Shown here: positions 3,811 to 51,316 of the stretch, piece by piece
How the letters are laid out: every line of letters begins with the position of its first letter
How positions within the stretch are numbered: position 1 is the stretch's first letter
Assembly: GCA_045648165.1 (NCBI GenBank)
Contig: JAZRNL010000008.1
Location: forward strand, 50,834-114,833
Source: Clostridia bacterium
GTDB taxonomy: Bacteria; Bacillota; Clostridia; UBA1381
DNA: 64,000 nucleotides
Direction of reading: 5' to 3'
The notes under the pieces: generated by a model
Databases searched by the model: none
The model's input: only the letters and a program-made list of their open reading frames with translations
What the model was told of the DNA's origin: nothing
Made by a program: the position numbers and the translations under genes

Positions 3811-3879
3811 ATCAATAACCTCCAGCTTTATCTTTTTACGCCAAATAACCCCCATGCAAAAAGCCGGGGGCTATTATTA

Positions 3880-5070: not shown

Positions 5071-5075
5071 TCCTT

Positions 5076-5795: not shown

Positions 5796-5797
5796 TG

Positions 5798-7422: not shown

Positions 7423-7441
7423 AATTAATTTGTCCTTTCTG

Positions 7442-8866: not shown

Positions 8867-8906
8867 TAAGCTAAAATCCCCTTTCAGACAATTAGATAAG
8901 ATTTAA

Positions 8907-9401: not shown

Positions 9402-9435
9402 CACAAATTCCAACCTTTCGCTATTAGAATAATCA

Positions 9436-18069: not shown

Positions 18070-18304
18070 TATTATCTCCTCCAAATTATAAGTTATCTAA
18101 TTTATAGTGTAATTATAATTTTAACTCAAAAAAATCGTTAAGTCAATATTTTCATAAAATTTTAGCAAGATTTTATAACAATTAATTTGTTTATAAGATA
18201 TTAATATAACAACTGCAATATGGATATATACAATAATGTATAACAGTATATTTTTTTGTGTATACACAAGAAAAAAGGATTGCAAAAATGCAATCCTTTG
18301 AATA

Positions 18305-33419: not shown

Positions 33420-33703
33420 TCACTCGCCATATATACTCTGGCATTACCTCATTACTATATTCCCAAAGGCTCAGGTTACAACAGATATTATTTTACAAGA
33501 ATATTCAAACAATATAAAGGCAACAACATAGTATTACACACGGACACGAAGCAAAAAACTTAGCAAAAAACTCCTTTTAAAAAAATAACGACTCTATTGA
33601 TAAAATCGCAGCAGAATATGGATTTGAAAATAGTTCTTATTTCGCAAAAGTATTACGTAATCACTGCGGATGTTTGCCAACAGATTTCAGAAAAAATCAA
33701 TAA
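33420..33703 (+). pseudogene. Decayed AraC-family regulator remnant
   Basis: Frame-broken AraC HTH pieces: YFTRIFKQYKG followed by an in-frame stop, then in another frame IAAEYGFENSSYFAKVLRNHCGCLPTDFRKNQ-stop (33583-33703). There is no N-terminal domain and no start codon. Confidence 0.6.
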
Positions 33704-33820
33704 TCAAAAATAGCAGTAAAAAGTCCTAACGCCGGCTTTTGCAGGGGTGCAAATGCCGTGCTTGCCAATAATGCCTTTAGGCATATAAAAAGGCAAATTA
33801 TCGAACATTATCTTACAAGA

Positions 33821-33866
33821 AAAAAACCGCATAAGAGCATATATTTTAGCTTTTATACGGTTTTCT
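33821..33866 (-). terminator. Intrinsic terminator ending the 17-gene redox cluster
   Basis: On the minus strand: AAAACCGTATAAAAGC-loop-GCTCTTATGCGGTTTTTTT. It begins 26 nt after the transporter stop codon. Confidence 0.7.
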
Positions 33867-33891
33867 TTTATCTTATTATATACATTATTGA

Positions 33892-36752: not shown

Positions 36753-37427
36753 TTACTTCTCTATTTCACGGGTGTTATAAAGCTCTTTCATTTCCTCAAT
36801 TGGCTTTTGCATAAGAGCTTCTATAAGTTCTTTAAAATCACCATTTTCAATTTCCTTAACGCGATCCTCTAAATGACCACATCCCGGAGCTAAATACTTT
36901 CCGTTAATTCTTCTGGCAAGCATCGCAACCTGAGGATGTGAAATTCCTGCGGGGCATCTTGAAGAACATACTCCACACATTACACAGTCAAAAGATTCCT
37001 CAGCACATTTTTCAAAATCACCGCGCTGTGCATAGGCAATATACTGCATAACATTAAGTCCCTGAGTACAGCTTTTAGTGCAGGCCTTACAGCCGATACA
37101 AGCATAAATTTCGGGATAAAGCTGCATCATAACAGATTCATTTACAGGAATGTTTTCAATATCATAGCCTTCCTTAACAAGCGGGAAGAAAGGAAGAGTT
37201 GCAATATACATATTGTCCTCAACCTTAGTCTGACAAGCAAGACAAGCTTTAAGCTCCTTATCGCCTTTTATGCGGTAAATAGTTGCACAGGCACCACAAA
37301 AACCGTTACGGCAGCCGCAACCGCGAACCAACTGGTATCCTGCATATTCCATAGCGGTCATAATTGTTAAATTTTCGGGTACTTCATATTTTTTACCGAA
37401 AAGAAATATATTAACTAATTTTTCCAT
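36753..37427 (-). CDS. SdhB/FrdB-like iron-sulfur subunit (2Fe-2S plus two Cys clusters), no CCG domain
   Basis: CGCRNGFCGAC...C..C at the N-terminus, then CIGCKACTKSC and CVMCGVCSSRCP. Confidence 0.75.
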   Translation of the reverse strand: MEKLVNIFLFGKKYEVPENLTIMTAMEYAGYQLVRGCGCRNGFCGACATIYRIKGDKELKACLACQTKVEDNMYIATLPFFPLVKEGYDIENIPVNESVMMQLYPEIYACIGCKACTKSCTQGLNVMQYIAYAQRGDFEKCAEESFDCVMCGVCSSRCPAGISHPQVAMLARRINGKYLAPGCGHLEDRVKEIENGDFKELIEALMQKPIEEMKELYNTREIEK

Positions 37428-37439: not shown

Positions 37440-38273
37440 TTAATACTCATCCGGAAGCTCATCAAGCTCATCACATCTGAAAACCGGACCGTCTTTGCAC
37501 ACATATTTTGCACCAACATTACATCTTCCGCATTTGCCGACACCACACTTCATTCTAAGCTCAAGCGTTGTGTAAATCTGCGTTTTATCAAAACCAAGTT
37601 CACAAAGTCCATCCAAAGTAAACTTAATCATAATAGGAGGGCCGCAAAGAACTGCTGTTTTATTTGTGTCAAAGCCGAGTTTCTTTACATAATTGGGAAC
37701 AAATCCAACATGACCATCCCACCCATCTTGGGGATTGTCAATAGTAAGATGAACCTTTACGCCTGCATCCTGTGACCACTCATCAATGATTTCTTTATAA
37801 TCAAGCAAATCATCCTTACTTCTTGAACCGTAAACTATATCAATTTCACCATAGCGGTCACGATAATGTCTGCAATAATTAATTACGGAGCGAAGTGGTG
37901 CAAGACCAACACCACCTGCAATAAACAACAGGTTTTTGCCTGCAAATACATCATCAACAGGGAACGGTTTTCCGTATGGGCCTCTGATTGTTATCTGCTG
38001 ACCAACCTCTGCCTGATGTAGCCAGTCGGTTACGCATCCGCATTTTTTAATAGAAAATTCCATATACTCTTCGTTCGTGGGAGAAGACGTTATAGAAAAC
38101 ATTGCTTCTCCAACTCCGGGGACAGAAAGCATAGCACACTGACCGGGACGATGGTCAAAAGCTTTTTTGCCATCAGGCAAAACAACTCTGAAGGTTTTGA
38201 TATCAGGAGTGTCGATACGAACATCAGTTATAACACCGACTTTTGGTATTAAAGTTTCTTCTCTGTTATTCAC
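37440..38273 (-). CDS. flxA: FlxA-like FAD/NAD(P)H-binding oxidoreductase with C-terminal 2Fe-2S (AsrB/HydG/PyrK fold)
   Basis: FNR-like fold (RPGQCAML, LLFIAGGVGLAPLRS) and a terminal CGVGKCGRCNVG. Confidence 0.75.
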   Translation of the reverse strand: MNNREETLIPKVGVITDVRIDTPDIKTFRVVLPDGKKAFDHRPGQCAMLSVPGVGEAMFSITSSPTNEEYMEFSIKKCGCVTDWLHQAEVGQQITIRGPYGKPFPVDDVFAGKNLLFIAGGVGLAPLRSVINYCRHYRDRYGEIDIVYGSRSKDDLLDYKEIIDEWSQDAGVKVHLTIDNPQDGWDGHVGFVPNYVKKLGFDTNKTAVLCGPPIMIKFTLDGLCELGFDKTQIYTTLELRMKCGVGKCGRCNVGAKYVCKDGPVFRCDELDELPDEY

Positions 38274-39295
38274 TTATCATCCCCTCCAATCTTTCTCATT
38301 ACTTTAACAATATTCATAGAAATAGGGCACTTAGCAAGACATCTTCCGCAACCTACACAACTGAAAAGACCATTATTGTTTTCAGGATAATAAACAAGTT
38401 TGTGCATAAATCTCTGACGAAAACGTTCTTTTTGGGTAAGTCTGTTATTTCCATGAGCCATTTTTGTGAAATCCGAATACATACAAGAATCCCAACATCT
38501 GAATCTTATAACGCCTTTGCCCGTATTAAAATCTTTAATATCATAGCACTGACAAGTGGGACATACGAAAGTACAGGTTCCGCATCCGAGACAAGCTGAT
38601 GACAATTCTTCCCACTCAGGATTGTTGAAAAACGCATCGGTTTTTCCACCGCCGAAAGAGTTGGTGGTGAGGTCTTTAAGGGGAAGCTTGTTCATAATCT
38701 TTGAAATCTTTTCCTTCTGCTCATTAACCTTAGTTTCATCACATTCATCGGTAAAAGAAACAATCTTTTCTAAAAGAGCTTCTCCCTTTGACGTGTTAGC
38801 CTTAAAGAAAATCTCGTCTTCTGTTTTCCATGTTGTAACGTCGCCCTCAGGTTCTTCTGGAGAAATTCCAAAAGTTTTGCAAAAGCATGTTTCTGCCGGC
38901 TTTGCACAAGCAGTAGACACAATAACACCTTTTTGGCGCCTTGAAGCATAGTAGCTGTCAACAGGCTCGGTGAGGAATACTCTGTCTAAAACCTCAAAGC
39001 TTTTTACATCACAAGCGCGCACTCCGAAAACAACAAAATCTTCTGCTTCGCGTCGATTGTCAATAACTTCAATGTTTTTACCCTCTGTTTTAAATTCCAT
39101 CAAATTTTCCATTTGAGGAAAGAAGAAATCCTTTGGACTTCTTACAGTATTTAAAGCATCGCTCCATAAAACGCCATTTTCCCACTGTTTGTAAACAGCA
39201 CTTCCGTCATTATCATTAGCAGGAATATATAGCTTTGCGGTTTTTGCGATTTCTTCAAAAACCGCATTTATTTTATCAAGAGAACATTTACGCAT
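38270..39295 (-). CDS. flxB: FlxB-like iron-sulfur protein (AsrA / sulfhydrogenase-beta type)
   Basis: CLGCGTCTFVCPTCQC and CVGCGRCLAKCP. AGGAGGG RBS before ATG 39295. It overlaps flxA by 4 nt and flxC by 8 nt. Confidence 0.7.
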   Translation of the reverse strand: MRKCSLDKINAVFEEIAKTAKLYIPANDNDGSAVYKQWENGVLWSDALNTVRSPKDFFFPQMENLMEFKTEGKNIEVIDNRREAEDFVVFGVRACDVKSFEVLDRVFLTEPVDSYYASRRQKGVIVSTACAKPAETCFCKTFGISPEEPEGDVTTWKTEDEIFFKANTSKGEALLEKIVSFTDECDETKVNEQKEKISKIMNKLPLKDLTTNSFGGGKTDAFFNNPEWEELSSACLGCGTCTFVCPTCQCYDIKDFNTGKGVIRFRCWDSCMYSDFTKMAHGNNRLTQKERFRQRFMHKLVYYPENNNGLFSCVGCGRCLAKCPISMNIVKVMRKIGGDDK

Positions 39296-40286
39296 CAATA
39301 TCCCTCCTGTCAAACACTTCACCGGGCTCTAAATCCTCAGTGGTATAATCTACAAGCGGAGCTCTTGATCCAACTTCTGCTCCTGCCTGGTATTCACCAT
39401 AAAATTCGTTAATATCTTTAATAAACTTACGGTTTAAAAGATGAAGTGGAATATTTTGCGGGCAAACTCTTGAACATTCTCCGCAATCTGTACATCTGCC
39501 TGCTACATGATATGCTCTTATAATATGGAACATTTTCTCTTCGAAGCTATTGGCAGGTGCTTTATTTTCAACGCCGGATGCAGGATTGTCAAACACGCAC
39601 TTTTCACATGTACATGCAGGACAGGCATCACGGCAAGCATTACAACGGATGCAACGTGAAAGCTCATTCTGCCAGAATTCAAATCTCTCATCCGAAGTCA
39701 TCGCCTCGATTTTTGCCACCTCATCAAATCGTGACGAATCAACAACTTCGCCTTCATCACCCATAAGCTCGTCGTAAGCTACGTGTTTTTTACTCTTACA
39801 ATTTATGCAACGTTCCAGAAGTACATCCTTTGCAGAAACTGAAACAGCCTTATCTTCATAAATTGTTGTGATAAGAAGATTTTCGCCATCTGAGGCAACC
39901 TCGCTTATTCCCTCACCTGTTACGGCTTTCAGTTTTGAAATATCAACCATCCCTTCGCAAGGAATACCAACTGCATAAACCTTTTCGCGATCGAAACGGT
40001 GTTCAGTTAAAAGTTGATTAAAGCTATAGGTATCGCAAGGCTTTAAGAAAATAAGGATTTTACCTTCAAATCTATCTGTCTTTGAAACGAGATATTTTGA
40101 AAAATTCACTCCGCAAAAATCATTCCAGACAAAATTATCTTTTAAATCTTCTCCGGTTGTGAACATTTTAGGTGTTACATCGTAACCGAATTCGCCCTTA
40201 CTCCATCCAAGAACTGCTGTAACAGTACCGTTTGAAAGCAGAGAAACTGCTTTATCTATTAACTGATTTTGTGTTATCTTTTGCAT
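39288..40286 (-). CDS. flxC: FlxC-like iron-sulfur protein
   Basis: CIRCNACRDACPACTC and CTDCGECSRVCP. GGAGGA RBS. It overlaps mvhD by 13 nt. Confidence 0.65.
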   Translation of the reverse strand: MQKITQNQLIDKAVSLLSNGTVTAVLGWSKGEFGYDVTPKMFTTGEDLKDNFVWNDFCGVNFSKYLVSKTDRFEGKILIFLKPCDTYSFNQLLTEHRFDREKVYAVGIPCEGMVDISKLKAVTGEGISEVASDGENLLITTIYEDKAVSVSAKDVLLERCINCKSKKHVAYDELMGDEGEVVDSSRFDEVAKIEAMTSDERFEFWQNELSRCIRCNACRDACPACTCEKCVFDNPASGVENKAPANSFEEKMFHIIRAYHVAGRCTDCGECSRVCPQNIPLHLLNRKFIKDINEFYGEYQAGAEVGSRAPLVDYTTEDLEPGEVFDRRDIDA

Positions 40287-40708
40287 CGCAGATCCTCCAA
40301 TCTCTTATTCTCTCCAAGTGCTGTAACTTTCTCAACAAAATCGTTCATTGTAGCTGCAAATTTTGCGCCTTCAGCTGCAGAAACCCATTCTACACGTGTA
40401 CGCTCTTTTTCAATACCGAGAAAATCAAGCATAGAAAATAGTGCTGCCATTCTTCTGCGTGTGTAGTAATTTCCGGATGTATAATGACAATCGCCGGGAT
40501 GACAACCACATATAATAACTCCATCTGCACCTCTTTGGAATGCGCGAAGAACAAACATAGGGTTAACGCGACATGAGCAAGGAACTCTTATAATTTTTAC
40601 ATCTGCCGGATAGTTAAGACGGTTGTTTCCTGCAAGGTCTGCACCGGCATAAGAACACCAGTTACAACAAAAAGCAACAATTAAAGGTTTATGTTCATTT
40701 ACTTGCAT
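40274..40708 (-). CDS. mvhD: MvhD/FlxD-like (methyl-viologen-reducing hydrogenase delta subunit family) protein
   Basis: IVAFCCNWCSYAGADLAG...VPCSCRV...ICGCHPGDCHY, typical of the FlpD/MvhD family. It overlaps hdrA by 10 nt. Confidence 0.85.
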   Translation of the reverse strand: MQVNEHKPLIVAFCCNWCSYAGADLAGNNRLNYPADVKIIRVPCSCRVNPMFVLRAFQRGADGVIICGCHPGDCHYTSGNYYTRRRMAALFSMLDFLGIEKERTRVEWVSAAEGAKFAATMNDFVEKVTALGENKRLEDLRCKR

Positions 40709-42693
40709 ATTGCATCCACCTCCGCCATAATTTGATTACTTGCAAATCCGTTCAAGTCCATTGCACCTGACGGGCATGCAACAGTACAAGCGCCACAACC
40801 CTGGCAAACTGCAGGATTAACAACGGCAACTCGTCTTACCTTAGTTGTTCTGTCAGGCATACGGAACTCTTTATCTTCATAAGTGATAGCTCCGTAAGGA
40901 CAAACTCTCTCACAAGAAGAACATCCGTTACACATAAGTTCATTTGAATGAGCTACACAGGGATTTCCTGTTAATTTATCCTTTGCAAGAAGTCCGATAA
41001 CCTTAGAAGCTGCCGCACCAGCCTGAGAAACTGTTTCAGGAATATCCTTAGGTCCCTGACAAGCACCCGACAGGAATACACCTGCAGTAGGGCTTTCTAC
41101 CGGACGAAGCTTCGGATGAGCTTCTGTAAAGAAGTCGTTTGTATCCATACTCGCTGTAAGCATAGTTGCAAGAGGACGCGCGGATTTATCAGGCTCGATA
41201 GCCGCCGCAAGAACCACCAGGTCGGCATCGATATGAAGCTGTTTATTATCAATAAGGTCAGAAGCCTGAACTTTTAGTTTATCACCCTCAGGAGTAACCT
41301 TGCCAACCATACCTTTAACATATTTTACACCATATTCCTCGACTGCGCGGCGATAAAATTCATCAAAGTTCTTACCGGGAGTTCTAACGTCTATATAGAA
41401 CACATAAACCTCGGTATCAGGATACTTATCTCTCACGAGCATTGCGTGCTTGGCTGTGTACATACAACAAATTTTTGAGCAATACTCTTTACCCTTTTCG
41501 GCACAAGCATCGCATCTTGAACCTACACACTGAACGAATACGATAGTTTTGGGGGACTTTCCGTCCGAAGGTCTTTCAAGGTGACCTGCAGTAGGACCTG
41601 CCGCATTTGTAAGACGTTCAAATTCAAGGGATGTAATAACATCTTTAGACTGATTGTAGGCAAACTCATCAAATTTATCCATACTGATTGGATTAAAGCC
41701 AGTTGCAACAACAATCGCACCATATTTTTCATTAATATATTCATCTTTTTGAGTGTAATCAATAGCACCAGCCGCACAAACTCTTGCACAAAGACCGCAT
41801 TTACCATTTTTAAGCATATTACATGCATTGGGATCGATTGTAGCAACCTTCGGAACTGCCTGTGCAAAAGGAATATATATAGCACTTCTGTTATCCATTC
41901 CAAGGTTAAACTCGTTAGGAACCTTCTTCATAGGACACTTTTCAACACAAGCGCCGCATCCGGTACATATATCTTCCTTTACATATCGTGCATTTTTCTT
42001 GATAGTTACATCAAAGTTTCCTACAAAACCTTTGATTTCTGATACTTCGCTGTACGAGAAAATGCGAATGTTTTCATTTTGGGCAACATCCACCATTTTC
42101 GGTGTTAGAATACATGCCGCACAGTCAAGTGTAGGGAATGTTTTATCAAGCTGAGCCATTTTCCCGCCGATTGTAGGCTTTGTTTCAACAATGTCAACAG
42201 GAAATCCTGCATCAGCTATATCAAGTGCTGTCTGGATACCTGCTATTCCACCGCCTATAACAAGAGCTCTCTTTGTAACAGGTGATTCACCCGGTGTAAG
42301 CGGAGTGTTTAAGTTGACCTTAGCAACAGCCGCTTTGCCGAGAATAATAGCTTTTTCTGTTCCTGTGGGGATATCCTTATGCACCCAAGAACACTGCTCT
42401 CTTATATTCGCAATTTCAACCATATAAGGATTTAAGCCTGCGGCAGCTGCAGTTTTTCTGAAAGTTGCCTCATGCATACGGGGTGAGCACGAACAAACAA
42501 CAATGCCTGTAAGATTATGCTCTTTTACCGCTTCCTTAATCATGTCTTGTCCTGCCTGAGAACACATATACTGATAGTCGGTGGAAAAGACAACACCGGG
42601 TTCGCTTTTCAAGGCTTCAGCTACTGCTTTTACATCAACTGTACCTGCAATGTTGCTACCACACCAACATACAAAAACTCCAACTCTTTGCAT
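40699..42693 (-). CDS. hdrA: Heterodisulfide reductase subunit A-like bifurcating flavoprotein
   Basis: 664 aa. N-terminal Cys domain (VFVCWCGSN...VVCSCSPR), FAD site ALVIGGGIAGIQTALD, an inserted ferredoxin (CTGCGACVEKCP, CGLCARVC) and a C-terminal ferredoxin (CNGCSSCERVCP, CQGCGACTVACP). Confidence 0.9.
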   Translation of the reverse strand: MQRVGVFVCWCGSNIAGTVDVKAVAEALKSEPGVVFSTDYQYMCSQAGQDMIKEAVKEHNLTGIVVCSCSPRMHEATFRKTAAAAGLNPYMVEIANIREQCSWVHKDIPTGTEKAIILGKAAVAKVNLNTPLTPGESPVTKRALVIGGGIAGIQTALDIADAGFPVDIVETKPTIGGKMAQLDKTFPTLDCAACILTPKMVDVAQNENIRIFSYSEVSEIKGFVGNFDVTIKKNARYVKEDICTGCGACVEKCPMKKVPNEFNLGMDNRSAIYIPFAQAVPKVATIDPNACNMLKNGKCGLCARVCAAGAIDYTQKDEYINEKYGAIVVATGFNPISMDKFDEFAYNQSKDVITSLEFERLTNAAGPTAGHLERPSDGKSPKTIVFVQCVGSRCDACAEKGKEYCSKICCMYTAKHAMLVRDKYPDTEVYVFYIDVRTPGKNFDEFYRRAVEEYGVKYVKGMVGKVTPEGDKLKVQASDLIDNKQLHIDADLVVLAAAIEPDKSARPLATMLTASMDTNDFFTEAHPKLRPVESPTAGVFLSGACQGPKDIPETVSQAGAAASKVIGLLAKDKLTGNPCVAHSNELMCNGCSSCERVCPYGAITYEDKEFRMPDRTTKVRRVAVVNPAVCQGCGACTVACPSGAMDLNGFASNQIMAEVDAICK

Positions 42694-42709: not shown

Positions 42710-43096
42710 TTACTTACTATATTTTCTGAATGCACTGACCAGAAGTTGTTGCGGAACATCTTCATCCAGAAGTGCCGGAACATCGTTTGCAGTCATTCTG
42801 TTTTCACCCTGTTTTCTTATAGCACTAAGGCGAACAGCTTCAACTAATTTAGCAGGCTCAACGCCTCTCGGGCATCTGTCGATGCAAGCAAAACAAGATA
42901 AGCATTTATATAATGATTCTGATTTTAAAAGCGGCTGTATATCTCCGCTCTCAACCATACTTACAAACTGATGGGGATGATACTCCATCTCATTGTAAGC
43001 AGGACAGGTAGCAGAGCATTTTCCGCATTTCATACATTTTTTAGGATTTACTCCACTTTGACGGATTAACTCCTCACGAAGATACTTATTATTCAT
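42710..43096 (-). CDS. hdrC: Heterodisulfide reductase subunit C-like (2x[4Fe-4S])
   Basis: CMKCGKCSATCP and CLSCFACIDRCP; 128 aa. Confidence 0.85.
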   Translation of the reverse strand: MNNKYLREELIRQSGVNPKKCMKCGKCSATCPAYNEMEYHPHQFVSMVESGDIQPLLKSESLYKCLSCFACIDRCPRGVEPAKLVEAVRLSAIRKQGENRMTANDVPALLDEDVPQQLLVSAFRKYSK

Positions 43097-43880
43097 TTGT
43101 ATCCTCCTTTACTCCAAGTGCTTCTGCTAAAAGCTCGGTGAAATAAACAACCGGTATATCAGCACCGTTTTTCTCAAGATTGTATTTACAAAGAGGACAA
43201 GCTGTTATAATCATTTCAGCTCCCTGCGCTTTAGCATTGGCTACTACAGAATTACTGCTCTTTTTTGCTAAATCCGGACTTTCAACGCTAACATATCCTC
43301 CACAACACTCATTGCGTTTTGCAAAGATTACAGGCTCTGCTCCCAAAGCCTTTATGAAATTTTCCATAATACTTGGGTTTTCAGGATCGTCCATCTTCAT
43401 AACACTGTTAGGTCTTAATAAAAGACAACCGTAATATGCTGCAATTTTCTTTCCTTTTAGCGGGTTTACAACCTTTTCGGCCAATTTATCAAACCCCACC
43501 AAATCGCGAAGCATTTCAAGATAGTGATAAACCTCGGTTTCTCCAAAATATTCGCCGTCTTCTTGCATATAACGGTTTACTTTATCGGAAAACTCCTTGT
43601 CATTTTGCATAAAATAATTTGTTTGTTTAATAACATTATGGCAAGCTGAGCATACTGTAACTAAAGGCTGTTCTTTTAAAGAAGCATCCTTTAGAGCACG
43701 AACAGAAGAAAGCTTTGTCGCAACTTCATCTTTCGCGGTAGTAAATACTCCGCCGCAGCATTGCCAGTTTTCAATTTCTTCCAGTGTAACCCCTAAAGCT
43801 TCCGCAGATTTATATGCATACAAATCAAGGTCTTTTGCTTTATTTTTCAAGGTACAGCCGGGAAAATAACTAACCTTCAT
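43089..43880 (-). CDS. hdrB: Heterodisulfide reductase subunit B-like (two CCG domains)
   Basis: Two CCG repeats: FPGC...QCCGG...CSAC and YYGC...ECCGG...CPLC. GGAGG lies 6 nt before ATG 43880. Confidence 0.88.
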   Translation of the reverse strand: MKVSYFPGCTLKNKAKDLDLYAYKSAEALGVTLEEIENWQCCGGVFTTAKDEVATKLSSVRALKDASLKEQPLVTVCSACHNVIKQTNYFMQNDKEFSDKVNRYMQEDGEYFGETEVYHYLEMLRDLVGFDKLAEKVVNPLKGKKIAAYYGCLLLRPNSVMKMDDPENPSIMENFIKALGAEPVIFAKRNECCGGYVSVESPDLAKKSSNSVVANAKAQGAEMIITACPLCKYNLEKNGADIPVVYFTELLAEALGVKEDTNE

Positions 43881-43894: not shown

Positions 43895-45271
43895 TCAAAC
43901 CATTTGTTCAGGATGGAATACCTCGTCAAACTTCTCGGAAGTCAAGAAGCCCAATTCAACGCAAGCTTCCTTAAGTGATATATTATCCTTGAATGCCTTT
44001 TTAGCTGTTTTTGCTGCATTTTCGTATCCGATATAAGGATTAAGCGCAGTAACAAGCATCAAGGAATTGTGCAAATTATGATGCATTTTTTCCGTGTTTG
44101 CCTTAATACCCACTGCACAGTTTTTATTAAATGATCGGATTGCTTCAGCCATCAGTCTTGCAGACTGGAGGAAGTTATAAGCACAAACAGGCATAAATAC
44201 ATTAAGTTCAAAATTACCCTGCGAAGCTGCCATTCCAACGGCAACATCATTACCCATTACCTGAACTGCAACCATGGTTACGGCTTCACATTGTGTTGGG
44301 TTTACTTTACCTGGCATAATAGATGAACCCGGCTCATTTTCTGGGATGAATATTTCGCCAAGACCGTCTCTCGGGCCTGATGCAAGCCAACGTACATCGT
44401 TTGCAATCTTCATCATATCTGCAGCAAGTGCCTTAATTGCACCATGTGCAAATACAAGTTCATCCTTTGATGTGAGAGCATGAAACTTATTTTCTGCTGT
44501 CACAAAAGGCTTATTTGTGATATTGCCAACCTCAGCTGCAACAAGTTCTCCGAACTTTTCCGGCGCATTAAGACCTGTTCCTACAGCAGTGCCGCCAAGA
44601 GCAAGCTCATAAAGGGGCTCAACTGAGCGCTTTATAAGCTCAATATCCTTTTCAAGGCTTGAACGCCAACCACTTATTTCCTGTGTAAACTTAATAGGAG
44701 TTGCATCCTGAAGATGTGTTCTTCCGCTCTTAACAATTCCTTCGTTTTCTGCCTCAAGTCGCTTGAATGTGTCTACCAATTCCTGAATTGCAGGAATTAA
44801 TTTATCTTCAAGAACAAGCACAGCGGCAATATGCATGGCTGTAGGAAATGTGTCATTTGAAGACTGACTCATATTAACATCATCGTTGGGATGAAGCAAT
44901 TTATTTCCTAAAATCTGGTTTCCTCTGTTTGCAATAACCTCGTTGGTATTCATATTAGACTGTGTGCCGGAGCCTGTTTGCCATACAACAAGAGGAAAAT
45001 TATCATTTAGCTTTCCTGCCATAATTTCATCACAAGCACCTTTAATAGCTTCAAGCTTTTCCTTTGTCATTTTTTCAGGACGAAGTGTATTATTTGTTAT
45101 TGCAGCTGCTTTTTTAAGCACGCCGAATGCGTGTATGATTTCTGCAGGCATTGTTTCAATACCTACACCTATCTCAAAATTTTCATGACTTCTTTGTGTC
45201 TGGGCAGCCCAAAGCTTATCAGCCGGAACTTTTACCTCACCCATTGAGTCGTGTTCAATACGATATTCCAT
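43895..45271 (-). CDS. fumC: Class II fumarate hydratase
   Basis: HDSMGEVKVPADKLWAAQTQRS and the GSSIMPGKVNPTQCE signature. The start is either ATG 45271 (better RBS spacing) or ATG 45280. Confidence 0.93.
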   Translation of the reverse strand: MEYRIEHDSMGEVKVPADKLWAAQTQRSHENFEIGVGIETMPAEIIHAFGVLKKAAAITNNTLRPEKMTKEKLEAIKGACDEIMAGKLNDNFPLVVWQTGSGTQSNMNTNEVIANRGNQILGNKLLHPNDDVNMSQSSNDTFPTAMHIAAVLVLEDKLIPAIQELVDTFKRLEAENEGIVKSGRTHLQDATPIKFTQEISGWRSSLEKDIELIKRSVEPLYELALGGTAVGTGLNAPEKFGELVAAEVGNITNKPFVTAENKFHALTSKDELVFAHGAIKALAADMMKIANDVRWLASGPRDGLGEIFIPENEPGSSIMPGKVNPTQCEAVTMVAVQVMGNDVAVGMAASQGNFELNVFMPVCAYNFLQSARLMAEAIRSFNKNCAVGIKANTEKMHHNLHNSLMLVTALNPYIGYENAAKTAKKAFKDNISLKEACVELGFLTSEKFDEVFHPEQMV

Positions 45272-45291
45272 TTTGTTCATTCCTTTCTGAT

Positions 45292-46233
45292 TTATATATT
45301 AAGACCTTTTATTAAATCCTTAAGAACGTTTGCACTGTTATGAAGTGCTGCAATTTCTTCATCATTAAGAGGAAGCATAATTTTGCTATGTGCGCCCTTA
45401 TTTCCTACAACATTTAAAAGACTCAGGCACACATCATCAATGCCATATTCGCCATTAAGAAGTGTTGATACCGTAAGAGTTGTATCAATTCCGCTTAAAA
45501 GGCACTGACACACGTGGCAAACTGATATTGACACTGCATAGAATGTCGCGCCTTTGCGCTGAATAACTCTTGCACCTGATTTACGCATATAATTTTCAAC
45601 TTCATCTTTATTAAATTCAGGGTAATCAGCGCCTGTTAAAATTGCATTTCTATAGCTTTCAATGGGCACATTTGATATGTTTGCAATTGACCAGGGAACA
45701 AATGAACTGTCGCCGTGTTCACCAAGCACATAAGCGTGTACATTCTTCTGATTTACTGAATAGTATTCAGAAACTCTTGAACGAAGTCGTGCAGTATCGA
45801 GTATTGTACCTGAACCGATAACGCGTTCCTGCGGGAGGCCTGTATGCTTCAAAAATACATATGTTAAAATATCAACAGGGTTACTAACAATAACGTATGT
45901 GGCTTCAGGAGCAACAGGAACAATTTTATCTGCTATACTCTTTATGATGTCAACGTTAGTCTGAGCAAGGTCAAGCCTTGACTGCCCGGGCTTTCTTGCC
46001 ATACCTGACGTAATAACAACTATATCAGAGCCTGCAGCATCATCATATGTTCCTGCATAAATAGTTGCAGGATTGCAGAAAGGAACGCCCTGTCTTATAT
46101 CAAGGGCTTCGCCAAGAGATTTTTCCTCATTAACATCAATCATAACAATTTCCGATGCAAGCCCCATAATTGTAAGTGTGTATGCAATTGTGGAACCTAC
46201 ATTACCCGAACCGATTACTGTAATTTTATTCAT
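45292..46233 (-). CDS. mdh: LDH-family 2-hydroxyacid dehydrogenase predicted to act as malate dehydrogenase
   Basis: LDH-type blocks (VIGSGNVG, GSGTILDTARLR, VLGEHGDS). The specificity position reads MARKPGQSR, with Arg where L-LDH has Gln. It sits next to fumC. Confidence 0.7.
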   Translation of the reverse strand: MNKITVIGSGNVGSTIAYTLTIMGLASEIVMIDVNEEKSLGEALDIRQGVPFCNPATIYAGTYDDAAGSDIVVITSGMARKPGQSRLDLAQTNVDIIKSIADKIVPVAPEATYVIVSNPVDILTYVFLKHTGLPQERVIGSGTILDTARLRSRVSEYYSVNQKNVHAYVLGEHGDSSFVPWSIANISNVPIESYRNAILTGADYPEFNKDEVENYMRKSGARVIQRKGATFYAVSISVCHVCQCLLSGIDTTLTVSTLLNGEYGIDDVCLSLLNVVGNKGAHSKIMLPLNDEEIAALHNSANVLKDLIKGLNI

Positions 46234-46277
46234 AATAAATCCTACCTTTCAAATCTTGTTTGTTTAGTTGTATTTTT

Positions 46278-47699
46278 TTACTTTAAAACGGATACTGCAT
46301 CTAAAATTGTCTTTTCAAGTGCTTCTCGTCCGTATTTATCCACTTCAGCTTTATTCTTTTCACCATGGGTAAGGCAACCTGCACCTCCGATACAACCACC
46401 GACACACGCCATACCTTCTATGAAGTTAGCATCCAGAACATTCTTACTCTTTTTAAGAAGTGCCATCTTGCAAGCTTCAATTCCGTCACAAGGAATTGCT
46501 TTTAAGTCAAAATCAATGTTCTGTTCCGCGAGCCCTTGGGCAACCGCATCAGAAAGCCCTCCGGAGCGAGCAAATATTCTTCCAAAATAGGATGCATTGT
46601 CAAGAACGTCTTCGTCAAGTGTTGTAATATCAAGGTCCTTACTATCGTAAAGTGCCTGAAGTTCCTCAAATGTAAGAACTGCATCTACATAGGGTTTAAC
46701 TTCCTCAAGTTGTGCTTCTGCTTTTTTTGCAGTACAAGGCCCGATAAACACAACCTTTGAACCAGGATCTGTATCTTTAATATATTTCGCAAGTGTTGCC
46801 ATAGGCGAAAGATTATGTGAAATATATTGCACCAAATCGGGGAATGTCGATTTTACATAAGACACAAACGCAGGACAACATGAACTTGTTAAAAATCCTT
46901 TTTCACTGAGTTCTTTTGACTCTGCCTGAGCAACCATATCTGCACCCAGGGCAGCCTCAATAACAGTGTAAAATCCGAGTTCCTTTAATCCCTTAATTAC
47001 TTGTCCGAGTTTTGCGTAAGTAAACTGGCTTGAGATAGACGGTGCAACCATTACGTAGACTTTGTAATTTTTATTTCCCTCGCTGTTTTTTATAAGCTCA
47101 ATTGCATCTAAAATATATGACTTATCCATAATAGCACCGAAAGGACACTGATATACACAAGCACCGCAACCGGTACATTTACTGTTGTCAATCGCTGCTG
47201 CATTGTCTTCATTAATGGATATAGCCTTGATTTTACATGCATTCTGGCAAGGTCTTTTACGATTTATAATTGCAGAAAACGGACAAACCTTTGCACATTG
47301 ACCGCACTCAACGCATTTTGATTTGTCAATATGCGCTACATGATTTGAATCAAAAATGATTGCACCTTTTTTGCAAACATCTTCGCAGCGGTGAGCAAGA
47401 CAGCCGCGACAGGATTCTGTTACAACATATCCTGCAGACGGACATTCATCACATGCGATATCAATAACCTCAATCACATTGGGATTTTCCTTGTCACCTC
47501 CCATAACAATTTTAATTCTTTCTTCTAAAATTGCTCGTTCTTTGTACACGCAACAACGCATGGTAGAAGTTTTACCAGGTACAATGATTTTTGGAATTTC
47601 AAACACATTTTCAAGCAGAGCATCCTTCCATGCGTAACGTGCAACTTCACGCAGCACCTTATATTTTAAATGCTGCACTTTTGTGTCAAATTTTCTCAT
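46278..47699 (-). CDS. [FeFe]-hydrogenase-family protein (HfsD-like; two ferredoxin-type clusters plus H-domain)
   Basis: 473 aa. CVECGQCAKVCP and CTGCGACVYQCP, followed by H-cluster motif variants TSSCCPAF, GPCTAKKAE and EGMACVGGCIGG. Confidence 0.8.
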   Translation of the reverse strand: MRKFDTKVQHLKYKVLREVARYAWKDALLENVFEIPKIIVPGKTSTMRCCVYKERAILEERIKIVMGGDKENPNVIEVIDIACDECPSAGYVVTESCRGCLAHRCEDVCKKGAIIFDSNHVAHIDKSKCVECGQCAKVCPFSAIINRKRPCQNACKIKAISINEDNAAAIDNSKCTGCGACVYQCPFGAIMDKSYILDAIELIKNSEGNKNYKVYVMVAPSISSQFTYAKLGQVIKGLKELGFYTVIEAALGADMVAQAESKELSEKGFLTSSCCPAFVSYVKSTFPDLVQYISHNLSPMATLAKYIKDTDPGSKVVFIGPCTAKKAEAQLEEVKPYVDAVLTFEELQALYDSKDLDITTLDEDVLDNASYFGRIFARSGGLSDAVAQGLAEQNIDFDLKAIPCDGIEACKMALLKKSKNVLDANFIEGMACVGGCIGGAGCLTHGEKNKAEVDKYGREALEKTILDAVSVLK

Positions 47700-47711
47700 G
47701 TGTCACTCTCC

Positions 47712-48884
47712 TTAAAAATAACTAACTTTAATTCTTTTTCCCATCTTTGTAAGGCACTTTGAAAGTTCCTCAACAAGATTCATTTTTATACTGAAATTTA
47801 TGGGCAAATCAGGATTCTGATGTGCCGGATTTATAGCACGACCTACATAGAAATTTATATCTGTAGCTTCTTCAAACAACAGCTGGCATATAAGTGATGC
47901 ACCATCACGATTATAATTCCACTGCTCATACATTTCGTTATCGCCTAAATAATCCTTGGCATATTCCAAAACTCTGTTTACTGTTATAACGCCTTCAGTA
48001 ACAAGGTCAACTCCTTCAAGATGAGCAATTGGCGGAATGTCTGAATTTTCAAAATTAAGGCTCGCTCTGAGCGGTTTTCTTAAATATTTAGCCGCAATTG
48101 AAGAAGTTGTTCCGCCGCAAATGATGTGCTTCCCTTCTTTTGAGAAGAAAAGAGACATCATTCTATCACAATCATCACGGTTAGACGGAGGACCGAAAAG
48201 AATGTTCATCGGCTCTCTTTTTCTGATTTTTACGATACAGGCAGTTGCATCGTCACCGGGCTTTTGACCATATAGTTTATCACATTCATCAACTAAAAGT
48301 GTGGATAGATTTTTAGCAGTAAGTCCGGATACTGACATAGTTTCCATAAATTCAATAATGTCTTCACGTTTCCAACCAAAGTTATACGCCATACCTATTC
48401 CGGCATGAGGACAGCCGTCGCTCATAGCAATGAAAATATCATTTTCCTGTATACGAATCTGGCTTTTAAAAATCTTTTTGCCACCAATATTCATTTCAGT
48501 TTTCGGATAATCGTAATTCTTATTATTCCGCAACACAATCACCTGGGGATTATCGTACTGAATTATCTCAACCATTTCGTTGTTGATAATCTGCATAATT
48601 GTAAATGTGGAATAGGCAACGCCTCTCACTGAACACACAGGAAGGGTTGCAGCTATAGTTTCGACACACTCTTCAACAGGTAGCCCCTCTGCCATCATAG
48701 TTGAAATAATTTTTGATGTAAGGGTAGAAAGAATACTCGCTTTTACACCGCTCCCAAGACCATCAGCAAGTACGATTACGGTTGAGTTCTCATTTTGTTC
48801 AACAATGTCCACATGGTCACCGCAAAGTTGCTCGCCATAATGATTAATACTTTTCCAGCCGATATCTGCACATAAATCATTCAT
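47712..48884 (-). CDS. SpoIIE/PP2C-family serine phosphatase
   Basis: GDHVDIV...VLADGLGSGVKASILS...MSDGC are PP2C signatures. It overlaps hydS by 8 nt. Confidence 0.8.
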   Translation of the reverse strand: MNDLCADIGWKSINHYGEQLCGDHVDIVEQNENSTVIVLADGLGSGVKASILSTLTSKIISTMMAEGLPVEECVETIAATLPVCSVRGVAYSTFTIMQIINNEMVEIIQYDNPQVIVLRNNKNYDYPKTEMNIGGKKIFKSQIRIQENDIFIAMSDGCPHAGIGMAYNFGWKREDIIEFMETMSVSGLTAKNLSTLLVDECDKLYGQKPGDDATACIVKIRKREPMNILFGPPSNRDDCDRMMSLFFSKEGKHIICGGTTSSIAAKYLRKPLRASLNFENSDIPPIAHLEGVDLVTEGVITVNRVLEYAKDYLGDNEMYEQWNYNRDGASLICQLLFEEATDINFYVGRAINPAHQNPDLPINFSIKMNLVEELSKCLTKMGKRIKVSYF

Positions 48885-50565
48885 CTTGTATCGACTCCTT
48901 TAATTTAGCAAGTGCAATTTTGGTTTCTGCCGCCGTTTCGCCAAGTAAAGAAGCGATTTCCTGAACAATTCTCATCTGCTTGTCTACAACCCGGTCTGCA
49001 ACTTCTATAGTTTGTCGGCTGATATTTTCTTTTTTCCCGCGCTCTATTTCTTCATCGGTAACATCACGCATTATTCCAACTAAAAGTCTTGATTCCTTAT
49101 CATACAGAACAGACTGCTCTACATAGCGTCTGTATTCTGCAAGATATACTCTTTCACCACGTATATTCTTTCCTGTTCTCAAAACCTCTGCAAACAGTTT
49201 AGGATCAAGCACCCTTATTATGCTTTCTCCCAAAACATCCGAATTTGAACGGATATTCATCATATTTCGCGCCGCCTCATTTATCTGCTGCACCTCTAAT
49301 TTTTCATTAAGAACTATAAGACCATTTGGAGTGTTTTTAACAATTGTGTCAGAGAAGCTTTCCGCCTTATCCTTCAGGAAAGGTAAGCACATAGAAATTT
49401 CAGCCTTACCCTGACAAATGGCAATTGCTTTTTCACGGCAGGTATTGTATCCACAAGAACCGCAGTTTAGTTCATCAGAAGGTTTAAATTTTCCCATTTC
49501 TCTCAAAACTGCAAATATTTCTGTTTCACTTGGCATAGCAAGCTTATGCTCTATATATTCAAACTGTTTTTTTAGCTCTGCAGGCTTTGGCTCACTAACA
49601 TCAAAATCATCTTTTCCTGCATAATCCGCAATTGTTATATAGTCTTTAACAGGAGCTGTTCTATGATATTTTTCCATAACAGGACCACCAATACAACTTC
49701 CCACACAGGCAGACATTTCTATAAAGCACTTGTGAATTTTTCCGTTTTCTATATCCCGAAGAGCATCAATACAGTTCTGAACTCCATCAAGGGCTATATA
49801 GTTATATCCGGGAGCGTCCAATGACATTGTTTTCAGAATTCCTCCTGTTGTGGGGAAAAATCTTGCCCTGCTCCGGTCATTCACGTCCATTTTCGGTTTA
49901 AGCTCTATATTCTTTTCCTTGAGCCATACAGATAGCTCTTCAAATGTTAAAACTGCATCAACAATACCCTCGTAATGTTCAGCTTCATCTTTTTTCGCCA
50001 CACAAGGGCCAATAAATACAGTCTTTGCATTCGGATACCTTTTCTTTATATCTACGCAATGTGCCTGCATAGGAGAAACAACATCTGCCAAATATTCAAG
50101 CGCTGCTGGAAAATACTTCTGTATAAGCAAGTTAATAGAATGACAGCAGGATGAAATGATAATATCTCTATCATCCTCACGGAGCATTCTTTCATACTCA
50201 TTTTTAACGATTGTTGCACCGATGGCAGTTTCTTCAACATCATAGAAACCGAGTTGTTTGAGAGCTTCCCTCATAGACTCAATTCCAATGCCCTCATAAT
50301 TCGCAACAAAAGACGGTGCCAAGCTCACAATAACCGGTTCACCGCCTTGCAATAAGACTTTTGCCTTTTCAGTTTCATCAACAATCTGCTTAGCATTCTG
50401 AGGGCAAACAACAAAACACTGTCCGCATAAAATACATTCATTTCCAATAATATGCGCCTGATTTCCTGAAAATCGTATCGATTTAACAGGACAATGACGA
50501 ATACATTTGTAACAGTTCTTACAGTTGGATTTTTTTAAAGTTAAGCAATTGGGCATATTCGTCAC
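48877..50565 (-). CDS. hydS: Sensory [FeFe]-hydrogenase (group C, HydS/HfsB-like) with C-terminal PAS domain
   Basis: N-terminal CKNCYKCIRHCP / CILCGQCFVVCP. H-domain motif variants SSCCHS, GPCVAKKDE and EMSACVGSCIGG. An extra CGSCGYNTC-x16-C (Cx2Cx4Cx16C) site, then a PAS-like region (NTPNGLIVLNEKLEVQQINEAARNMM). Confidence 0.85.
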   Translation of the reverse strand: MTNMPNCLTLKKSNCKNCYKCIRHCPVKSIRFSGNQAHIIGNECILCGQCFVVCPQNAKQIVDETEKAKVLLQGGEPVIVSLAPSFVANYEGIGIESMREALKQLGFYDVEETAIGATIVKNEYERMLREDDRDIIISSCCHSINLLIQKYFPAALEYLADVVSPMQAHCVDIKKRYPNAKTVFIGPCVAKKDEAEHYEGIVDAVLTFEELSVWLKEKNIELKPKMDVNDRSRARFFPTTGGILKTMSLDAPGYNYIALDGVQNCIDALRDIENGKIHKCFIEMSACVGSCIGGPVMEKYHRTAPVKDYITIADYAGKDDFDVSEPKPAELKKQFEYIEHKLAMPSETEIFAVLREMGKFKPSDELNCGSCGYNTCREKAIAICQGKAEISMCLPFLKDKAESFSDTIVKNTPNGLIVLNEKLEVQQINEAARNMMNIRSNSDVLGESIIRVLDPKLFAEVLRTGKNIRGERVYLAEYRRYVEQSVLYDKESRLLVGIMRDVTDEEIERGKKENISRQTIEVADRVVDKQMRIVQEIASLLGETAAETKIALAKLKESIQDE

Positions 50566-50822
50566 ATCCTTTCATTATTAATTACAGATAACACTTTTTC
50601 TTCGAAAAATTCTTTAAAATTATCGCGGTTAATTCCTGTATGTATTACATCATCCACCTGAACAGTTACTCCAAGACGATTACACTTACCGATACAGAAG
50701 CTTCCCGTAAGCGCAACTTCATTCCGAAGATTATTTTCTTCAATAGCTTCAGTAAACAACTCAACTATTTCAGGTGAACCCTTTATATAGCATGAACTGC
50801 CTATGCATATTTGAATTAACAT
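50562..50822 (-). CDS. Thioredoxin-like [2Fe-2S] ferredoxin (HfsA/NuoE-like), copy 2
   Basis: 86 aa with the four-Cys pattern CIGSSC...CIGKC. Confidence 0.7.
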   Translation of the reverse strand: MLIQICIGSSCYIKGSPEIVELFTEAIEENNLRNEVALTGSFCIGKCNRLGVTVQVDDVIHTGINRDNFKEFFEEKVLSVINNERM

Positions 50823-50826
50823 TTCT

Positions 50827-51066
50827 TCACACCTTTGCTGCTATAACATTTTCGAAAAATTCATTAACATTCTCGGGTGTAACTGAATGGAACTCTTCAT
50901 CAACAGTTACACATACACCCTGCTGACATTTACCAAGACAAAAAGTGCCGCCAAGTTCCACTTTATCACCAAGATTGCTTTCATTTATAAGATTCTGAAG
51001 CTCTTCAACGACCAAGCGAGAACCTTTGATATGGCATGAACTGCCAATACAAACTGTTACTTTCAT
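50827..51066 (-). CDS. Thioredoxin-like [2Fe-2S] ferredoxin (HfsA/NuoE-like), copy 1
   Basis: From MKVTVCIGSSCHIKGS...FCLGKC, a paralogue of the downstream gene. The 112-aa ORF start at 51165 has no homology support. Confidence 0.65.
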   Translation of the reverse strand: MKVTVCIGSSCHIKGSRLVVEELQNLINESNLGDKVELGGTFCLGKCQQGVCVTVDEEFHSVTPENVNEFFENVIAAKV

Positions 51067-51136: not shown

Positions 51137-51207
51137 ATTGTATCATAAACAACGCCAAAAATCAATGGTTATCTACAAATTCCATCATATTGATAAATTT
51201 TTCACAA
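51137..51207 (-). promoter_or_regulatory. Candidate promoter and Rex-like operator of the hydrogenase/fumarate cluster
   Basis: On the minus strand: TTGATT (51165-51160), 17 nt, TG-n-TACAAT (51142-51137). Upstream lies the 18-mer TTGTGAAAAATTTATCAA (51207-51190), which fits TTGTGAA-N4-TTCACAA with 2 mismatches. A lone TTCACAA half-site follows the -10. Confidence 0.35.
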
Positions 51208-51281: not shown

Positions 51282-51316
51282 AAAAACCGTATAAGAGTTT
51301 ACTCCTATACGGTTTA
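51282..51316 (-). terminator. Intrinsic terminator of the nucleoside ABC operon
   Basis: On the minus strand: AAACCGTATAGGAG-TAAA-CTCTTATACGGTTTTTG. Confidence 0.7.

Follow-up and report, generated by a model that had tools for sequence, protein, structure and literature searches.

An [FeFe]-hydrogenase/HydS cassette joined to a Flx-Hdr-fumarate reductase operon in a Clostridia bacterium: a predicted 17-gene unit with a proposed H2 outlet

In a 64,000-nucleotide (nt) stretch of contig JAZRNL010000008.1 from a Clostridia bacterium (the window, to which all positions below refer unless a locus is named), 17 tightly packed genes on the minus strand span the region between about 51.2 and 33.8 kb. 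The first five form a hydrogenase cassette (51066-46278, -) encoding two thioredoxin-like 2Fe-2S proteins, a HydS-type [FeFe]-hydrogenase that bears a PAS domain, a PP2C phosphatase and a second, HfsD-like [FeFe]-hydrogenase of 473 amino acids (aa). The downstream part of the array follows in the order mdh-fumC-hdrBCA-mvhD-flxCBA-frdBA-transporter, a succinate operon. The stretch 51165-33815 (-) is predicted to be one 17-gene transcription unit that joins two known modules. On balance we lean towards a reading in which NADH electrons would reach fumarate through a Flx-Hdr-Frd system that also reduces ferredoxin, the ferredoxin electrons being vented as H2 by the 473-aa hydrogenase, with HydS/PP2C and probably Rex tuning the process.

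Both modules have already been published; what is new is their junction, together with the mutual exclusion at the cassette between AdhE and a kinase on the one hand and the succinate operon on the other. A search of open-access papers turned up no earlier description of such a fusion, whether with a sensory or with a group B hydrogenase, nor of this mutual exclusion.

For comparison, 160 related 20-kb loci (designated by L numbers) were assembled. Eighty are hydrogenase-centred and were retrieved from species-representative genomes with the 473-aa protein as query (79-95% identity); they belong to uncultured Clostridia, Acutalibacteraceae, Ruminococcus and related gut and rumen bacteria. The other 80 are hdrB-centred and came from a scan of metagenomes with HdrB, mostly from human gut and rumen.

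Layout and regulation of the predicted unit

Within the cassette the genes are spaced by +4, -4, -8 and +12 nt. The junction to the mdh start then measures 44 nt (46234-46277, -), and apart from it the intergenic gaps across the array are all 16 nt or less. The upstream limit of the unit is set by the intrinsic terminator of the preceding ABC-transporter operon (51284-51315, -), with a 14-bp stem and a T-run; a strong intrinsic terminator (33815-33876, -; -22.2 kcal/mol, z = -5.4) follows the transporter gene, and none of 200 shuffled sequences folded as well. The junction holds a ribosome-binding site only. A terminator scan of it was empty, and the fold of 46200-46320 (-11.2 kcal/mol, z = +0.72) was no better than those of shuffles. 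Its sole promoter-like match places the -10 element inside mdh codons 2-4 and so cannot serve mdh. Because the gap is short, carries a ribosome-binding site but no hairpin, and lies in an array with terminators before the cassette and after the transporter, and because the homologous gap also measures only 21-50 nt in eight further related loci, we infer that the 17 genes are co-transcribed.

The original prediction had proposed co-transcription from the gene order, the short gaps or overlaps (at most 12 nt) and the lack of a hairpin in the 44-nt gap. The coordinates and Pfam domains bear out that order, all on the minus strand, and the spacings agree; neither the terminator nor the independent promoter at 46233-46278 that would have spoken against the proposal was predicted by sequence scans of the window. 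Two further accounts of the junction were rejected. As to a structured RNA or a terminator, either in the leader or at the junction, an Rfam scan of 33-52 kb gave no match and the junction does not fold. Nor is there a compositional break of the kind expected at a horizontal-transfer seam, the GC content being flat at 0.38-0.41 over 34-52 kb.

A Rex-operator-like inverted repeat, TTGTGAAAAATTTATCAA, lies 141 nt upstream of the ATG of the first gene, fdxA1 (51190-51207, -); no other site in the 64 kb comes within one mismatch of the Rex consensus TTGTKAAN4TTMACAA. Directly downstream of this box a consensus scan located a candidate promoter, TTGATT-17 nt-TACAAT with an extended TG (51137-51165, -). 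Box and promoter form a block that is conserved in the window and in L001 and L003, the two closest relatives having upstream sequence, while the flanks diverge. In other succinate-linked lineages (L009, L013, L014, L040 and L055) a rex gene is located directly upstream, and Rex boxes with at most two mismatches precede mdh in 6 of 35 stand-alone succinate operons, as compared with about 1% of random windows. NADH/NAD+ control of the unit through the candidate Rex site is likely. Rex regulation as a general feature was rejected, since the box ahead of fdxA1 occurs only in the window, L001 and L003 and boxes are far from universal among the stand-alone operons.

Recurrence of the linkage and the usual context of the cassette

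The five-gene cassette is present in nearly all hydrogenase-centred loci of sufficient length. The genes that follow HfsD, the gene of the 473-aa hydrogenase, are highly variable in the relatives and often on the opposite strand; the cassette therefore usually ends at the hydrogenase. Its usual upstream context is LysR-(Rex)-AdhE-small APH/RIO-like kinase, as confirmed by Pfam (e.g. L080:1404-11404). In ten loci (L001-L003, L009, L013, L014, L019, L023, L040 and L112), mdh and the succinate operon come directly after HfsD, and all of these except L040 share the arrangement of the window. Adjacency of hydrogenase and succinate operon was counted in about 10 of 64 loci from the hydrogenase-centred set and about 6 of the roughly 45 hdrB-centred loci that are long enough to read. 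The mdh-fumC-hdr-flx-frd block itself is conserved throughout the hdrB-centred loci and was found in more than 40 metagenome loci; where 7-10 kb of sequence upstream of it is available, a hydrogenase is mostly absent.

At least five different gene orders show the linkage, and several of these lack the sensor; absence of the linkage from related genomes had been named in the original prediction as a finding that would count against a functional connection. L040 (6595-11718) reads Rex-HfsD-mdh-fumC-hdrB and has no fdx, HydS or PP2C gene, and in L055 (600-7000) Rex-mdh-fumC-hdrBC is divergent from fdxA1-HfsD. Only fdxA1-HfsD is found downstream of frdA in L103 (11100-14762) and L106 (17100-20795), and Rex, fdxA1 and a HfsD-like gene lie downstream in L154 (17100-20798). 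In L083 (13400-15455) the start of a cassette (fdxA1-fdxA2, then the end of the locus) comes after the transporter gene, and an orphan fdxA1-like gene directly precedes mdh in L089 (7231-8600). A quick neighbour-joining distance tree of HfsD spreads the linked loci over at least four clades. The HfsD of L112 is 88% identical to that of the window and its mdh only 68%, the succinate operon being of a different lineage; this pairing of a close HfsD with a succinate operon from elsewhere indicates independent joining events.

The length of the junction is graded. It measures 149 nt in L112, 120 nt in L023 and 21-50 nt in eight loci, and the 21-50-nt junctions, like the 44-nt one of the window, hold a ribosome-binding site only. 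A near-consensus promoter and a near-perfect Rex box, TTGTTAAAAAAATAACAA, are kept in the L112 gap (2450-2600), and a promoter, TTGAAA-17-TATAAT, in the L023 gap (11420-11543). Judged by these sequences, the L112 and L023 junctions look like unfused intermediates of the window's junction.

The kinase is encoded in 38 of 46 unlinked versus 0 of 8 succinate-linked loci with enough upstream sequence (Fisher p = 1e-5, the test ignoring phylogenetic relatedness), and AdhE is likewise absent from all eight of the latter. No homologue of the kinase, AdhE, Rex or LysR was detected within the 64-kb window even at E<1, so that the earlier remark that no kinase was visible holds. The missing kinase, the cognate of the phosphatase, is a defining difference from the canonical cluster. 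This lineage appears to carry the succinate pathway where most relatives have AdhE as the cassette-linked NADH sink, and the comparison suggests that the cassette goes along with the NADH sink in use in a given lineage, be it AdhE or the succinate pathway.

Other genes are occasionally attached to the cassette. An iron-type alcohol dehydrogenase (Fe-ADH) gene directly follows HfsD on the same strand in L011 (11466-12746) and L042 (3154-4302), as does a pyruvate kinase gene in L058 (5656-7068) and L059 (5830-7254). Malate dehydrogenase (MDH)-type genes with Arg at the specificity position were found between PP2C and HfsD in L029 (9038-9973) and, divergent and adjacent, in L068 (5484-6425); neither of these two cassettes has the kinase. 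A further MDH-type gene is located about 5 kb upstream of a cassette with the kinase in L043 (359-1300). Malate dehydrogenase alone can be attached to the cassette.

The hydrogenases, the succinate operon and the proposed electron route

By TIGR04105 and its motifs the 473-aa protein (46278-47699, -) is a HfsD/HydA2-like monomeric [FeFe]-hydrogenase of group B (B1/B3), the likeness to HfsD/HydA2 being taken from TIGR04105 and published descriptions. Pfam identifies Fer4 domains and Fe_hyd_lg_C (4e-58). The protein scores 556 bits against TIGR04105 (FeFe_hydrog_B1; cutoff 450), with residues 4-445 on model positions 1-461, and 151.6 bits against the group A model (cutoff 405.95); it is only distantly related to the solved group A structures. 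Its motifs read TSSCCPAF, FIGPC and EGMACVGGC, the methionine of motif 3 (M497) being kept. TSSCCP is found in 82 of 83 HfsD loci in place of the TSCCCP of subgroup B2 (CpIII); the enzyme is therefore placed outside B2, in keeping with the B1/B3 label that the NCBIfam model carries. With CpIII and the 'HydM' enzymes of Bacteroides and Blautia it shares the full-length TIGR04105 match above cutoff, the F-x-G-P-C of CpIII and M497. It differs from the B2 enzymes in TSSCCP and from the group in being encoded with a dedicated 2Fe-2S partner and a sensor.

The other hydrogenase (562 aa; 48877-50565, -) is a HydS-like, putative sensory enzyme of group C, with two [4Fe-4S] clusters, an H-domain, a Cx2Cx4Cx16C site and a PAS domain. 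The Pfam matches are PF02906 Fe_hyd_lg_C (2.5e-50), PF04060 'FeS' (2.5e-9), PAS PF00989 (1.7e-6) and a Fer4 dicluster; that to TIGR04105 is partial and below the cutoff. The C-terminal site reads CGSCGYNTC-x16-C, thus Cx2Cx4Cx16C, and is conserved in 64 loci. The motifs are SSCCHS, FIGPC and EMSACVGSC. In the second sphere (CpI numbering) M353 is replaced by G and M497 by S, as in TmHydS, and C299 stays Cys. Gly at 353 is the commonest state in sensory enzymes (51%; PMC10055695), while the Cys at 299, the proton-relay position, is a minority state retained in only 17% of the sensory group (PMC10055695).

All four H-cluster cysteines are present in both hydrogenases. On this point, and on the letters of the motifs, the original prediction was right; its listing of GPC among the deviations does not hold, since GPC with F two residues before G is normal in groups B, C and D (PMC12138974, PMC10055695), an F/G pair also replacing T/M in motif 2 of CpIII (PMC12138974, PMC11023054). 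The deviant motifs of both proteins are nearly invariant, across 64 HydS and 83 HfsD loci, and can therefore be regarded as signatures under selection. The possibility of decayed, non-functional hydrogenases was rejected on the same ground, these being species-level loci.

The group B hydrogenases studied so far reoxidise ferredoxin in gut bacteria, producing H2 (PMC12578642), and for Thermoanaerobacterium the literature takes HfsD to be the ferredoxin-linked hydrogenase (PMC11837493, PMC12288451). By analogy, we infer that the 473-aa hydrogenase depends on ferredoxin. The small proteins at the head of the cassette are both thioredoxin-like [2Fe-2S] proteins that match the C-terminal half of PF01257 (cutoff 24.8 bits) and keep Cx4C...Cx3C: FdxA1 (79 aa; 50827-51066, -) with 34.5 bits and FdxA2 (86 aa; 50562-50822, -) with 26.7 bits. 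In FdxA1 the cysteine pattern is invariant in 64 loci, and fdxA1 is still paired with the catalytic hydrogenase where the sensor is absent (L055, L103 and L106). For fdxA2 no match was found in five loci that retain HydS (L007, L044, L060, L071 and L078). The cassette may accordingly be viewed as a catalytic pair, FdxA1 and the group B hydrogenase, combined with a sensory set of FdxA2, HydS with its PAS domain, and PP2C.

The succinate operon, also on the minus strand throughout, opens with mdh (45292-46233, -; Ldh_1_N and Ldh_1_C), an LDH-like malate dehydrogenase gene that passes both the lactate dehydrogenase (LDH) and the MDH cutoffs of NCBIfam. Arg occupies the Gln102/Arg102 specificity position (GMARKPGQSR), as in 54 of 54 homologues checked, and the gene always precedes fumC; the candidate reading that mdh is really ldh was rejected for these reasons. 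The fumC gene (43895-45280, -) encodes a class II fumarate hydratase (TIGR00979, 710.7 bits, cutoff 664.75). It is followed by a hdrB-like gene for a CCG-domain protein (43089-43880, -; PF02754 twice) resembling SdhE, HdrB and the C-terminus of TfrB, for which the ATG at 43880 was picked by homology (homologues begin MKVSYFPGC), and, from Pfam and NCBIfam searches, by a hdrC-like gene for a 2x[4Fe-4S] protein (42710-43096, -). The flavin/Fe-S subunit and putative bifurcation site is encoded by hdrA (40699-42693, -), identified by Pfam and scoring 783 bits against the HdrA2 model, below an exception-level cutoff. The mvhD/flxD product (40274-40708, -; PF02662, 7.5e-56) aligns with VhuD and with the C-terminal portion of the HdrA2 model.

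Three further genes encode an Fe-S protein of 332 aa without an NCBIfam match (flxC; 39288-40286, -), an Fe-S protein of 350 aa resembling sulfhydrogenase beta/AsrA (flxB; 38270-39322, -) and a protein with FAD, NAD and 2Fe-2S domains resembling sulfhydrogenase gamma/AsrB (flxA; 37440-38273, -). Together flxCBA are predicted to encode an NAD(P)H-oxidising Fe-S/flavin module. The frdB (36753-37427, -; 2Fe-2S and 4Fe-4S) and frdA (35141-36739, -; FAD_binding_2, 9e-70) genes, whose best NCBIfam matches are TfrB and TfrA, both below cutoff, are predicted to specify a soluble TfrAB-like fumarate reductase. The last gene (33892-35124, -; PF06826, 1e-64; TIGR01625) encodes an AspT/YidE/YbjL-family transporter and putative succinate exporter; a 'putative succinic acid transporter' occupies the same position in the operon of Pseudoclostridium thermosuccinogenes (PMC7282089).

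That 'succinate operon' comprises fumarate hydratase, FlxABCD-HdrABC, fumarate reductase and a transporter (PMC7282089; Koendjbiharie & van Kranenburg 2019 preprint), and NADH-dependent fumarate reduction coupled to ferredoxin reduction was proposed for it (PMC7282089). The window has the same genes in the same order (fumC, hdrB, hdrC, hdrA, mvhD/flxD, flxC, flxB, flxA, frdB, frdA, transporter), but adds mdh in front, lacks an own promoter and is fused behind the hydrogenase/sensor cassette, no hydrogenase being described there as part of the P. thermosuccinogenes operon. FlxABCD-HdrABC of Desulfovibrio (Ramos et al. 2015, as reported in PMC7282089) has the same seven subunit types, including an MvhD-like FlxD and a FAD/NAD FlxA; the window differs in its presumed acceptor, which is fumarate via FrdAB instead of DsrC/heterodisulfide, and in a reversed gene order. 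With MvhADG-HdrABC and TfrAB of methanogens it shares HdrABC and MvhD homologues, FrdA resembling TfrA, FrdB the N-terminus of TfrB and HdrB its C-terminus; given these resemblances, the chemistry of two archaeal enzymes is represented in one operon. In contrast to the methanogen systems, the [NiFe] subunits MvhAG are lacking, the hydrogenase, a group B [FeFe] enzyme, is encoded away from mvhD, FlxABC is present, and the coenzyme M/coenzyme B thiol carriers are not expected in a Clostridia bacterium.

According to the proposed working, Mdh would reduce oxaloacetate to malate, which FumC would dehydrate to fumarate. FlxABC-FlxD(MvhD) would oxidise NADH, and the HdrA flavin would split the electrons, one pair going downhill via HdrBC and FrdAB to fumarate (about +30 mV) while the other is pushed uphill onto ferredoxin. 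The co-transcribed group B hydrogenase would then reoxidise ferredoxin to yield H2, and the AspT/YidE-type transporter would export succinate, for a net reaction of 2 NADH + fumarate -> succinate + H2. The hydrogenase is placed here as the ferredoxin outlet because the studied group B/HfsD enzymes reoxidise ferredoxin and the proposed Flx-Hdr-Frd reaction yields it in reduced form. H2 back-pressure would stall the electron-splitting step at HdrA, which could explain why an H2 sensor (HydS/PP2C) and an NADH sensor (the Rex-like operator) are found on one unit. Blockage of the branch by H2 also agrees with P. thermosuccinogenes, in which succinate formation is H2-sensitive and is abolished by an 85% H2 headspace (PMC7282089).

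Several points weigh against this electron route. Flx-Hdr-Frd bifurcation is itself only a proposal, also in P. thermosuccinogenes (PMC7282089). About 85% of the readable succinate operons have no adjacent hydrogenase and most cassettes have no succinate operon, so that the coupling would be facultative and Rnf or another enzyme could reoxidise ferredoxin. Group B enzymes are electrochemically bidirectional (PMC11023054), and family membership leaves the direction of H2 flux unfixed. Conservation of the Rex-like box is confined to the closest relatives and does not extend to more distant ones, several consensus-like promoter sites lie inside coding regions, making internal promoters possible, and the kinase contrast carries the relatedness that its test ignores.

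It is possible, if rather unlikely, that the link is regulatory only. HydS/PP2C would then switch electrons between H2 and succinate according to H2 pressure, and the hydrogenase would have no stoichiometric role in fumarate reduction; succinate would be an alternative NADH sink, co-expressed with the ferredoxin hydrogenase at high H2 like AdhE of Ruminococcus albus. The eight-gene cluster of R. albus, with ferredoxin hydrogenase, AdhE, sensory hydrogenase and phosphatase, is indeed H2-responsive and is down 111-fold at the low H2 maintained by a hydrogen consumer (PMC6776011), and a Thermoanaerobacterium hfsB deletion alters the fermentation products and increases adhE expression (PMC5707799). 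The mutually exclusive occupation of the cassette by AdhE and the succinate operon points the same way, as do the Fe-ADH genes after HfsD in L011 and L042.

Independently of these readings, the cassette is like hfsABCD and the R. albus HydS-HydA2 cluster in its PAS-bearing HydS/HfsB with the four-Cys site, its PP2C and its HfsD/HydA2-type hydrogenase, all on one strand; the window's relatives carry what looks like the full R. albus context (Rex, AdhE, small kinase), while the window has no AdhE, kinase or rex and continues into a 12-gene succinate pathway. The original prediction had called the cassette an hfsABCD-like module. HydS and PP2C are identified as it said, but there was no confirmation that the two 2Fe-2S proteins correspond to HfsA: the cassette opens with two thioredoxin-like 2Fe-2S proteins, and HfsA is described differently, as not aligning with known proteins (PMC11837493).

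The regulatory account has difficulty with the loci in which HfsD stays with the succinate operon without HydS or PP2C (L040, L055, L103 and L106, FdxA1 being retained too except in L040). In addition, the window contains no kinase, DNA-binding output or known PP2C substrate, and no signalling route to transcription can be drawn. Because the recurring association is with the catalytic hydrogenase, and is found in four lineages without HydS/PP2C, a purely regulatory reading is insufficient. The earlier suggestion that H2 pressure is sensed and directs electrons to H2 or fumarate is plausible by the R. albus analogy, but for this reason does not suffice.

A more intimate arrangement, which we regard as doubtful, would have the group B hydrogenase and FdxA1 dock onto Flx-Hdr-Frd to give one [FeFe]-hydrogenase bifurcating machine under post-translational control by HydS/PP2C. 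It could be a fumarate-driven NADH-to-H2 engine working without free ferredoxin, or an H2:fumarate reductase like Mvh-Hdr plus Tfr. The fdxA1-HfsD pair repeatedly kept beside hdr/frd and the orphan fdxA1 before mdh in L089 are compatible with it.

H2 uptake, in which the 473-aa hydrogenase, perhaps via FdxA1, would feed electrons from H2 to MvhD-HdrA for reduction of fumarate and ferredoxin, seems improbable. Repeated placement of HfsD/FdxA1 beside hdr/mvhD/frd genes and the bidirectionality of group B enzymes (PMC11023054) would suit it, and the orphan gene in L089 suggests that the 2Fe-2S protein could interact with the Hdr complex. Against this, mvhD is followed by flxC-flxB-flxA, a complete NAD(P)H input module that is kept in every hydrogenase-linked locus reaching that far, and the large majority of succinate operons without an adjacent hydrogenase shows that the complex needs no hydrogenase donor. 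The hydrogenase lies five genes away from mvhD, not next to it as in a Mvh-Hdr type of arrangement in which no other donor module is present. Studied family members are ferredoxin-oxidising H2 producers (PMC12578642, PMC11837493), and high H2 suppresses succinate in the sole studied organism with this operon (PMC7282089). With FlxABC retained, a group B enzyme and most operons free of hydrogenase, the earlier idea of an [FeFe] analogue of Mvh-Hdr is unsupported.

An incidental head-to-tail juxtaposition of two independent operons, without functional meaning, is highly improbable. In its favour, cassettes are mostly followed by unrelated genes that differ from locus to locus and often lie on the opposite strand, succinate operons are mostly found alone, and a promoter still separates the blocks in L023 and L112. 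Against it, adjacency recurs in some 15% of loci, with at least five gene orders, at least four clades of HfsD and different succinate-operon lineages; the gap is cut to 21-50 nt with a ribosome-binding site only in nine loci including the window, and AdhE and kinase are absent whenever the succinate operon is attached.

The preferred route of NADH electrons to succinate and H2 would have wider bearing. Group B [FeFe]-hydrogenases have recently been proposed as the main H2 source in the human gut, and HydS-type sensors are abundant in human gut and rumen; the locus and its relatives would tie both together with a putative Flx-Hdr-type fumarate reductase. The sensor/hydrogenase cassette is suggested to be portable, attaching to an ethanol (AdhE) or a succinate (Flx-Hdr-Frd) NADH sink. 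The proposal predicts H2 evolution stoichiometric with fumarate reduction, H2-sensitive succinate formation and Rex control of the operon, and the loci with or without sensor, kinase or junction promoter represent a natural 'deletion series' for the functions of the parts. The balances of succinate, H2 and ethanol in gut and rumen Clostridia bear on cross-feeding and methane output.

The phosphatase and other features of the window

The SpoIIE/RsbU-type PP2C phosphatase (390 aa; 47712-48884, -; PF07228) is the best-conserved protein of the cassette. Across 88 diverse members of the family its PPM motifs CGD, DGLGSG and GDD do not vary, and 535 representative proteins match the whole protein at E<1e-30, the top full-length ones being about 390 aa long. 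The AlphaFold2 (AF2) model of the phosphatase domain has a pLDDT of 92.8; its best fold matches are SpoIIE, RsbX and Rv1364c, and it also superposes on RsbU, so that it resembles phosphatases of the partner-switching kind (SpoIIE, RsbX, RsbU). No kinase, STAS or anti-sigma protein that might be a substrate or partner was found in the window. The C-terminal alpha/beta domain of 166 aa (47712-48212; AF2 pLDDT 93.6) is conserved; it has no Pfam match, and its best PDB fold hit is not significant (E 0.025, TM <0.4). In the 88 members G257-G258 (CGGTT), E297-G298-x-x-T301 and N352 of this domain are invariant or nearly so.

In FrdA, an 88-aa N-terminal extension precedes the FAD fold. At residues ~120-135 an Asn (DANT) was aligned by eye with the covalent-FAD histidine of E. 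coli FrdA (RSHT), which suggests non-covalent FAD and a one-way fumarate reductase like Tfr and the soluble types.

Beyond the unit, a 650-nt non-coding stretch between the operon terminator and an intact araC-type gene (32390-33241) contains frame-shifted remnants of an AraC-family helix-turn-helix domain (33470-33705, +; GYNRYYFTRIFKQYKG; IAAEYGFENSSYFAKVLRNHCGCLPTDFRKNQ*). A ZMP/ZTP riboswitch (9468-9554, -; 61 bits, gathering threshold 39) lies ahead of a purine-biosynthesis operon, purE ... purD (2545-9491). The window also encodes a membrane H+-pyrophosphatase (15991-18084, -) and a SpoVT-type regulator (18305-18844, -), which by analogy with P. thermosuccinogenes fit spore-forming Clostridia with a pyrophosphate-based energy metabolism.

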